Assembly (NCBI GenBank): GCA_038087875.1
Contig: CM075993.1
Coordinates: 8,868,001-8,932,000 of the forward strand
Length of the DNA: 64,000 nt
Direction of reading: 5' to 3'
Source: Malacoraja senta
Taxonomy: Eukaryota
A program made the translations under genes and the position numbers. The notes below the pieces were generated by a model that was not told the DNA's origin, ran no database searches, and was given only the letters and a program-made list of their open reading frames with translations. Within the stretch, counting starts at the first letter, position 1. The number at the start of each line of letters is the position of its first letter. Positions 19,201 through 22,200 of the stretch are shown piece after piece.

Positions 19201-22200
19201 TTGTCATATCATACTGTGTTTGCATATTCTGTTGTGCTGCAGCAAGTAAGAATGTCATTGTTCTATCTGGGACATATGACAATAAAACACTCTTGACTCT
19301 TCTTCAGTCTGAAGTCATTCCAGCATTTTGTATACACCTTCAGTGTAAACCAGCATCTGAGTTCCTTCTGATTAATTACATCCTTTTGTTACACTCCTAT
19401 TTTCAGTTTGTAGTCTTTGATAATATTCAGCCCCTGCCACTGTCACCAAGCATCTGCTTGATTGAATTGAGCTTGTAGTTTGTTCTGAAATTCTCTCTTG
19501 GCATCCCTGATAGCCTTACAGATATCATACTTAACCTTCTCGTACAGTACAAGGTCATCTCTTTTGAAAGCATCGGATCGGGAGTTGAGTAGAGAATAAA
19601 TCTCCCTGTTCAAGTAACGTATCTGGTTAGGGTAGACTCTAATTGTCTTTGTTGGAATAGTCATCAACACATTTCTTGATGCAAATGGCTGGTTGAGGTG
19701 GTCTTGAACATGGTCCAGTCTACCAATTCAAGGCAGTCAAAAGTAGACCGTTAGCCTCCACAGACCACTGCAGTATTATTTTCTTCATTGGTGCTTCGGC
19801 TTCAGTCTCTATAAGCTAGTAGGAGCGGCACCAACAGATGCTGGCTGAAATGGGGGCAAGGGATGATGTGATAGGTGTACTTGATGACGGTGAGGCATAG
19901 TTTTAAGGTAAGAGATAGGAGAGTTACAAGGGATCTTAGGGGAACATTTTTTAAGCAAAGCAGTTGATATCTGGAACGTGCTGCCATAGAAGGCAGTGGG
20001 ATCGGATATAATTACGATGTTTAGGACATTTAAATAAACATTACAAAGAAGGATACTGTCCTTTAACAGACAAATGGAATTAGTGTTGATGTGTTAAAAA
20101 ACTTGGCATGCATGTTGTGGGCTGAAGGGCCCACTCTGTACTGTATAACTCTGACTTCTCCTATAATCGAATCTCCCAAAACCTACAGCAACATTTCCAG
20201 CATGATCGTTTCTATTGTTGCGCTGTTTATAAAGCCTGTGACCTTTATGCTTTTTAGCAACTTTATCAATTTGCCTTGCCAGATTTGTTTAAAATGAATA
20301 ATTTATTTATTTATCCACAGTTCACAAAATTGCATCATTTATGAATGAGTAATTTTGCCCATTTCTACATCCTATAATCCTACAACTGTCCACATCTTAT
20401 CCACTACATTTTTGGTGTTTCATATTATTTGCAAATTTTATAAACCTGCCTCCCACCTAGATCTATCGTGCTTTTACCCTTTGAAACAGAAAGGAGTCAA
20501 TTCAGTCATGAATATTAGCAAGAAATACTTCAATAGGATCGCTGGTGAATGATTGACAGCGGTGTGTGCAAGTTAATTTGGAAATGTTGGACTTAAGAGC
20601 ATGAACATAACTTTCAAATGAATTGGGTACCAATGGTATGAAAAGACACAAGGATTATTCAAGGATAGTCGGCATGGCATTGTTTGGGAGTACTCCTGCC
20701 TGACTAATTTGCATTTTTCAAAATAGCTAAATGTACCTTATGTGGATTTCAATAACTACATTGACTAGGTTGTTAAATTTGATGTCTTATCTATAATAAT
20801 TTGGTTAGCATCCATTCCAAACTCCAAGTTAAATATTTTTAAAACACTGGTTACATGATAAATCTGTATATGGCAATAGCTGAGATTATATGCAACATAA
20901 TTTTCTAGTTGCTTCTTCTTTCGTGTGGCGTGCACAGCCTAAAGTTGTGGGACAACTTGTTCTATTTGATCTTCTGTTTGTGCACGTCGAGTTGATTGCA
21001 TTAGTCGAAACAGGGTGGACCACGTGAAGGTTGCAATCTTCCACCCCTCTAGTTGCTTAAAAGCAGTCCTCTATAAAATTCGGAAGGATGTTTGTTTCTG
21101 TGATTTAAATTGATGGATTCTGTTGTATTTGCAGATATTGATGAATGTGTTCAGAATGGTCAGATATGTAACCACGGTCGTTGTGTGAATACAGAAGGCA
21201 GTTTCCACTGTATTTGTAATGCTGGATTTCAACTCACGTCAGATGGGAAAAATTGCATGGGTAAGTAGCGTAGAAATATGCAACAAATCATATAAATAAA
21301 AATATATAATATTTGAATTTTATGATGAATTTTGTTTAGATTTTTGTGAACTTATTTTTTTTAACTAGTGAGTAAATTAATACATTTTATATGAATACCT
21401 GTTAAAAGTGTAATCTCAATTTAAGATATTAATAATCATGTAACGTATCAGTGTTACAGCATGTTTACCACATGGAAAAAGGCTTTTCGCTCATTTGAGT
21501 CCATACAATGTAAACAAAATCTTGCCCTCGTGACAATGCAAATCCCCCTCTCCCATTTAAAATATTTGTCTAGTTCATTTTTGAACATTATATTTGAATC
21601 TGCCCCCACAATTCCTTACAGCAGTACATTCCAAACTGTAATCATTTGCTGAGCGGAAAAATAAAAATATCATGTCATTTTTGATTATCTTGCCAATCAT
21701 TGTATCTTTGTTCCCCTGAGTCTTGACCCTGTCGCTGCTGGGGATAATTTCCCATTAACTTCTCTGTCTTGGCCTTTCCTGATTCTAAATACCTCTGTGA
21801 TATCTCCTTACACCCCCCTGTTGCAAGGAGAATGGCAGAGCACCCCCAGTCTATCCAAATAAATAAAATACTTCATCCTAGAGTTATTGTCACTGCAGGA
21901 TGTTTTGAAGGCCACTTCTTCCTTGCATTTAGGCCTTCCACCAACATACACATTCATTTGGTTAAAACTAGTCTCCCATTGAAAAACCTTTCCTTCAACT
22001 CCATTTGCTCTCTCCACGTCAAAGGTGAACAATTCACTTCGTGAACAAATATTTAATCACTTTTGCTGCCAATTTCTACCTTTTCTCATCTTCAGATGGT
22101 CCACCTCTGAGTCTTTCGTTTCTGGATCACTGTATCTCCATCTGACAGGGTCGGATAGTGTCAAACATCCATTATAAGCCTAAAGATTCACACAGCTATC

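Follow-up and report, generated by a model that had tools for sequence, protein, structure and literature searches.

Several groups of non-autonomous retrotransposons consist of little more than the two ends of a long interspersed element (LINE). Such bipartite derivatives, formed by internal deletion, are known in the RTE, Ingi, Vingi and R2 clades (Kojima 2018, PMC5786205); Vingi-1_EE has many of them, and 5' ribozymes were proposed in the same study as one reason for this architecture. Here we describe an element of this kind, a 133-nt insert on the minus strand (21047-20915) of a 64,000-nt stretch of contig CM075993.1 (assembly GCA_038087875.1, positions 8,868,001 to 8,932,000), hereafter called the window. 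Like the elements of PMC5786205, it has LINE 5' and 3' ends only, contains no open reading frame (ORF) and is expected to be mobilised in trans; it differs from them in being 133 nt long, about 40% of which is a predicted ribozyme. The clades listed as ribozyme-bearing in that paper are R1, R2, R4, RTE and Ingi as well as LOA, and in the parts of it that were covered Vingi is not among them and no passage with "shark" or "Callorhinchus" occurs. The short internally deleted elements of R2 (R2 SIDEs and R2/R1 SIDEs; Eickbush and Eickbush 2012, PMC3414825) also combine an HDV-like ribozyme (HDV, hepatitis delta virus), which sets the 5' end, with a LINE 3' end. However, R2 SIDEs are rare and specific for a site in ribosomal DNA, whereas the present element is dispersed in thousands of copies and has a partner with an apurinic/apyrimidinic endonuclease (APE) domain. 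By analogy, the nearest mechanistic model is NARTc/L1Tc, which together with the SIDERs of trypanosomatids (PMC4035085) represents the case of an Ingi-related LINE and a short derivative sharing a ribozyme head; the NARTc/L1Tc head is active in vitro. The L1Tc head is 77 nt long, has P4 and has a proven promoter role (PMC4035085, PMC3383444), whereas the head described here is 54 nt long, lacks P4, occurs in an animal and holds an AUG in its core. The architecture as such is already known from NARTc, R2 SIDEs and Vingi derivatives; what appears to be new in this ribozyme-headed miniature LINE derivative is the minimal ribozyme, the embedded AUG and a lead to the CPEB3 ribozyme.

With regard to the ribozyme itself, the closest counterparts are the minimal HDV-like and theta ribozymes (Kienbeck 2024, PMC10879173), in which P4 is likewise absent or vestigial and the catalytic C is the first nucleotide of J4/2. 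These ribozymes are reported to be about 99% restricted to Caudoviricetes and often linked to tRNAs, and the eukaryotic set of that study consisted of RefSeq complete genomes plus human and mouse. The mammalian CPEB3 ribozyme (RF00622) shares the helix lengths, L3 and a G-U J1/4 with the element, but the sequences of P1, P2 and P3 are different and the element has no P4. A literature search, with Repbase and Dfam outside its scope, returned no description of the element family and no P4-less ribozyme on an animal retrotransposon; Repbase and Dfam may already note such heads.

We consider the element to be a young, high-copy bipartite non-autonomous LINE with a ribozyme head, a reading to which we assign a probability of roughly 80%. 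The head (20994-21047, minus strand, 54 nt) is a candidate minimal HDV/CPEB3-like ribozyme, and the sequence reads as the nested double pseudoknot that the initial annotation had proposed for it, with the canonical order of P1, P1.1, P2 and P3. The 5' strand of P1 (nt 1-7, 21041-21047) pairs with nt 30-36 (21018-21012) in 7 bp, including a G1.U36 wobble and a pair between nt 5 and 32 that is U-A or U.G depending on the subfamily. After a 2-nt J1/2, the 5' strand of P2 (nt 10-16, 21032-21038) forms 7 Watson-Crick pairs with nt 48-54 (21000-20994). P3 (3 bp) and its 7-nt loop L3, UUCACGU, span 21019-21031; L3, with P1' and GU coming after it, is identical to the Rfam CPEB3 consensus, in line with the match to the mammalian CPEB3 ribozyme given in the initial annotation. 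C22 is able to pair with G37, so that P1.1 would consist of one C22-G37 pair plus U21/U38. G37-U38 and a 5-nt remnant of P4 occupy 21005-21011, where related families retain a P4 of 14-53 nt. J4/2, CUAA (21001-21004), begins with C44 (21004), which is predicted to be the catalytic residue from its counterpart in HDV-like ribozymes (PMC10879173), and its second position, 45, varies between U and G among subfamilies. The predicted cleavage site lies 5' of G1 (21047). G1.U36 was present in 78 of 87 copies, and among 42 copies picked by their tails C44 was kept in 39 and A47, the last nucleotide of J4/2, in all.

The insert is bracketed by 11-bp target site duplications (TSDs). The 5' TSD (21048-21058, minus strand) ends directly before G1, and the first three bases of the 3' TSD (20904-20914) carry on the GAA tail; the edge of the element and the predicted cleavage site therefore meet at the position claimed at the outset. 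One contig from each of the runs X6, X9 and X12 (organisms B, C and D) crosses the empty site and skips 144 nt, that is, the 133-nt insert and one 11-bp TSD, which indicates that the insertion is real. In X12, a run flagged as a possible source of the window DNA, the contig departs from the window sequence at some 20 positions in either flank, and the 11 letters fit either side of the joint. The empty sites in B, C and D imply that the insertion either postdates the separation from those samples or is polymorphic.

Copies of the same unit are abundant in the genome. A 20-mer from the core of the element occurred exactly 4,858 times in 1.94 Gb (0 in the control) and a 27-nt tail pattern 3,328 times; the 37 best-matching loci were 97-100% identical to the window copy, and older subfamilies differed at about 13 positions. 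Many copies have the same junction, each with its own TSDs, indicating that the element was amplified as a unit. The head was found in 29 of 30 copies selected by the tail alone. Among 44 distinct tail-picked, head-bearing copies, a set which excludes three headless loci and duplicates, the TSD ended at or included G1 in 30 and ended 1-3 nt earlier in 8, and in the other 6 no TSD was found; TSDs were 9-14 bp long and abutted G1. Similarly, in three runs 383-394 contigs departed from the element at 21047, versus 62-86 at 21048. The multiplicity and individual TSDs that the initial annotation had wanted checked were observed, with 5' ends at or next to G1. Organisms A-D all have the family, as do E and F at lower word shares. 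Subfamily-level variants in the head were confined to positions 8 (unpaired), 32 (pair kept) and 45. None of 46 constrained head positions was disrupted, compared to 10 of 73 variable positions in the body (Fisher p 0.007, or 0.049 with position 32 counted). Two loci illustrate the later history of the copies. At L020:160-436, a young copy has inserted, in opposite orientation, within the 3' portion of an older family member, and at C17:8739343-8739508 (L035, L069) the element and its flanks occur twice on C17, 100% identical, inverted and about 150 kb apart, which may be a segmental duplication or an assembly duplicate.

Comparison with LINEs of the same genome revealed the source of both ends. 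The element is composed of about 79 nt of a LINE 5' end, a junction of about 13 nt and about 41 nt of a LINE 3' end, and is almost certainly an internal-deletion derivative of a Vingi-like LINE with a single ORF for APE and reverse transcriptase (RT) domains. All three LINE 5' ends that were read via the N-terminus of protein P0003 (L148-L150) carry the same head and run into the endonuclease N-terminus; in L148 the head is 70/71 identical to the element over nt 3-73. Among 20 loci obtained for a tail variant, L128 proved to be the 3' end of a LINE ORF, its last ~41 nt being common with the element; L117 is a further LINE 3' end with the shared tail, and a search listed 477 candidates, 40 of which were scored. 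In addition, L150 is followed downstream, on its own strand, by RT and C-terminal matches at C8:19404032-19404805. Because the 5' ~79 nt and the 3' ~41 nt belong to a LINE that already carries the predicted ribozyme, only part of the initial proposal stands: the element is a multi-copy non-autonomous retroposon with a LINE partner, but not an independently born short interspersed element (SINE) that recruited a ribozyme. A partner of the RTE type, considered at first in this analysis, was rejected on the basis of the LINE ends. In L123 (L123/L124), a different junction and a longer stretch of LINE 5' sequence indicate that the deletion arose at least twice, independently.

P0003, the closest full-length relative of this LINE, has 1019 aa in a single ORF with Pfam APE and RT domains and no RNase H, which is the architecture described for Vingi (PMC13708176); the domain content was assessed on this relative and not on an intact genomic copy. 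In a FastTree phylogeny that had no labelled Vingi, Ingi or RTE references, the genome LINE grouped with P0003/P0001 (support 0.999), in one radiation with an RT protein of Anolis and L197 and far from the other LINEs of the window. The clade name, Vingi-like, is inferred. Part of the partner LINE (L118:2722-3027) was identical at 86/100 aa to P0002, a protein fragment of the eel Synaphobranchus kaupii; should the window derive from a cartilaginous fish, this likeness would hint at horizontal transfer. Another Vingi-like family, 37% identical to P0003, is represented by its 3' part at L127:77-898, and has a different 3' UTR (untranslated region) and the same GAA tail.

The features of the window copy follow this composition. 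Downstream of the head, the rest of the LINE-5'-derived segment, with the first codons of the ORF, extends over 20969-20993, and the junction (20956-20968) duplicates the last bases of this segment, likely as a result of template slip at the deletion. The LINE-3'-derived segment (20915-20955) comprises, as judged from L128 and L117, the last codons, a stop codon (20941-20939), a short 3' UTR and the GAA-repeat tail. A predicted hairpin of the body has its 5' arm (20986-20979) in the former segment and its 3' arm (20936-20929) in the 3' UTR of the latter. This hairpin joins sequences from the two ends of the LINE and hints at end-to-end pairing in LINE RNA; in three tests of such long-range pairing, 26, 338 and 40 of 500 shuffles were equally stable, a weak, suggestive result.

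We also examined related LINEs for similar heads. Among 80 Vingi-like metagenome loci fetched, 20 covered the N-terminus and 16 of those had upstream sequence; five (L158, L164, L180, L197 and L211) showed the fold immediately 5' of the ORF and in sense orientation. Three of the five are independently marked by Rfam: L197 (55.6 bits), L180 (E 0.01) and L158 (E 0.033). No additional match to a stricter descriptor was obtained in the 80 loci. In a six-sequence comparison, all 57 cells of P1 and P3 were paired and 6 of 10 pairs were changed on both sides; on four of five measures, none of 500 shuffles scored as high. P2 kept all 7 of its pairs in a set of five sequences, with several pair types. 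Within the young family there was no covariation except for the U-A/U.G pair. L180 is a full-length element that has the same tail motif at its end and a TSD ending next to G1. L164 and L180 share P3 with the element and retain a P4 of 23-24 nt, suggesting that P4 was probably lost in the lineage of the element, already in the LINE.

In the LINE, the head also overlaps the beginning of the coding sequence. A47 of J4/2 and U48-G49 of P2' (20999-21001, minus strand) form an AUG, which is the first in-frame AUG after G1 of the parental APE-RT ORF in L149 and L150. An in-frame AUG occurs at the same J4/2-P2' junction in L164 and L180, making three families altogether; in L211 and L158 the AUG is downstream of the ribozyme. 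Downstream AUGs also exist after A47-U48-G49, and its use as a start codon is suggested by its position. HDV-like ribozymes of R2 and L1Tc have been proposed to assist translation initiation (PMC6765202). Since it holds the first in-frame AUG, the LINE head probably also serves translation initiation on uncapped RNA. An in-frame AUG at this junction was not found in the literature, in which no search aimed at it was made.

The following mechanism would account for these data. A copy would be transcribed from upstream or from within, and the 54-nt head would fold as an HDV-like ribozyme and cleave 5' of G1, giving the same 5' end on every RNA whatever the flank. The LINE protein, acting in trans, would bind the retained 3' UTR and GAA tail and nick the DNA, and reverse transcription of the ~135-nt RNA to its end, as in known target-primed reverse transcription, would leave TSDs of 9-14 bp at G1. 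Master elements probably have a cleavage-competent ribozyme. Uniform 5' ends would also be expected, however, if the head were mainly an internal promoter starting at G1, like Pr77 of L1Tc, with an inherited fold that became weak or inactive after P4 was lost; the ends would then reflect where transcription starts, together with the ease of copying a short template in full. Pr77 combines promoter and ribozyme functions (PMC3383444, PMC4035085), and certain well-folded SIDER ribozymes of trypanosomes are inactive (PMC4035085). With P4 reduced to just 5 nt, pairing of G37-U38 with A43-C44 around a UUCG loop could hide the catalytic C. The constraint on the head could likewise be due to a promoter or to the overlapping ORF start. 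On the other hand, subfamily variants spare the pairing and catalytic positions, P4-less ribozymes are active in phages (PMC10879173), and related heads keep the fold via compensatory changes despite sequence divergence. We therefore regard a head that acts mainly as a promoter as unlikely, and the two roles are not exclusive. Other observations count against a ribozyme-headed LINE derivative or weaken its support. The descriptor was passed by just 21 of 42 copies, and the density of rare changes in the head (41/1832) came close to that in the body (62/1786); both fit dead copies and lend no support to a ribozyme. Of the 16 Vingi-like loci for which upstream sequence was available, 11 gave no ribozyme match, and two reverse-strand matches in 20 regions were obtained with the loose descriptor. 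The covariation expected by the initial annotation was present insofar as the helices hold across five to six related sequences, but the counts are partly circular because the sequences had been selected with a descriptor for which pairing is a requirement. As for the LINE, L149 lacks the 5' strand of P1, L148 is broken up by another repeat, and the two LINE ends are tied by P0003/P0002 homology and co-location on C8, not by one continuous read.

Two other explanations fare worse. The size, copy number and LINE-derived tail of the element are SINE-like, and a SINE of the usual Pol III kind, in which a tRNA-like or novel head is joined to a LINE tail and the pseudoknot is incidental, might look similar. 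However, the 70/71 identity of the head is to the LINE's own 5' end, which continues into the LINE ORF, and scans of the window for tRNAs and Rfam families revealed no tRNA gene and no head derived from tRNA, 7SL, 5S or snRNA, in agreement with the initial annotation; this makes a Pol III SINE very improbable. Elements of this composition have been classed as non-autonomous LINEs rather than SINEs (Kojima 2015, PMC4494074), and in the part of a SINE-LINE pair table that was covered (PMC3747384) sharks and rays have tRNA-headed SINEs only; by its sequence, the element would not be a SINE in the strict sense. The fold could also be a chance pattern inside a repeat. The comparison with Rfam HDV and CPEB3 models called for by the initial annotation did not bear out a known family: nothing in the window reached gathering level, and the best match, to HDV-F-prausnitzii, covered exactly 20994-21047 on the minus strand with only 17.5 bits (E 0.65), compared to a gathering score of 44, with none of 20 other copies matched at E<=10. 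The Rfam models include P4. The minimum free energy z-score of the 54-nt head, -0.39, is uninformative, as ViennaRNA cannot model pseudoknots. An HDV-like descriptor, composed after the element had been seen, had one match in the window, the head itself, and gave three loose and no strict matches on both strands of 200 simulated 64-kb windows. The head also coincides exactly with the edge of the element, and the same fold occurs at the same place in five other lineages; a chance origin is, in our view, the least credible of these possibilities.

The likeness to CPEB3 may extend further than the element itself. RF00622 (cut-off 35 bits) matched neither the element nor any of 20 family copies, because P1, P2 and P3 differ in sequence and P4 is lost. 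In the genome, RF00622 matched 51 places, 39 of them over the cut-off (best 64.2 bits), and none in 14 control genomes. Nine of the 51 lay immediately 5' of P0003 N-terminal matches and shared their strand (32-35% identity; comparison of coordinate lists), pointing to a second Vingi-like family, known from coordinates, with a full CPEB3-like head directly before the ORF. Examples of such heads, scoring over the cut-off, are C21:8958106-8958189 and C1:217550485-217550568. The model also matched L197:3617-3689, where 35 of the first 37 nt agree with the CPEB3 consensus upstream of a Vingi-like ORF. The L197 head resembles the 5' end of Vingi-2_Gav from Kojima's supplement, which, compared by eye, matches the CPEB3 consensus at 38/40 and 14/14 nt and is not named a ribozyme in the parts of that supplement covered. 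Many RF00622 matches in the genome were 59-65 nt long and scored 32-44 bits (e.g., C13:8596080-8596144). Their assignment to the element family was disfavoured by the 0/20 result, and they possibly represent another P4-reduced ribozyme element. Because Vingi-like 5' ends are nearly identical to it, the CPEB3 ribozyme is suggested to be a domesticated Vingi head, the direction from LINE to gene being favoured by the wide spread of LINE heads. It is plausible, and on balance somewhat probable, that Vingi-like LINEs broadly start with a cutting CPEB3-type ribozyme, which in several families holds the AUG of the ORF at its J4/2-P2' junction, that the element represents its P4-less minimum and that the CPEB3 ribozyme is such a head domesticated. 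HDV-like ribozymes are known to have spread by retrotransposition (PMC8256844), and the covered parts of PMC8233481, PMC10274809 and PMC8256844 name no Vingi origin for the CPEB3 ribozyme. Neither a Vingi ribozyme nor a Vingi origin for CPEB3 was found described in the literature; Repbase and Dfam, which lay outside this search, may hold such heads.

The window copy lies antisense within an intron of a gene composed of calcium-binding epidermal growth factor (EGF) repeats, 87 nt ahead of a 126-nt exon (21135-21260, plus strand) that encodes one calcium-binding EGF domain of the fibrillin/LTBP type, as indicated by splice signals, Pfam EGF_CA (E 6e-11) and PDB matches. No second copy of the element was found within the window. 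Other RT-encoding LINE copies, about 24% identical to P0003 and unrelated to the element, are located at 14395-15320, 34091-35071, 52463-54359 and 61863-63945.

At 133 nt, the element represents a naturally occurring minimal template for a protein of the Vingi type, a clade that has come into use for RNA-only gene insertion (PMC13708176). With this element, a predicted P4-less HDV-like ribozyme, a type so far described in phages and metagenomes, turns up in an animal retrotransposon, in which Rfam does not recognise it. A test of where the CPEB3 ribozyme came from could look for Vingi remnants and TSDs near it, in mammals as well as outgroups. Finally, with thousands of potentially self-cleaving inserts in the genome, selection against insertion in the sense strand of introns would be expected; the window copy is antisense.

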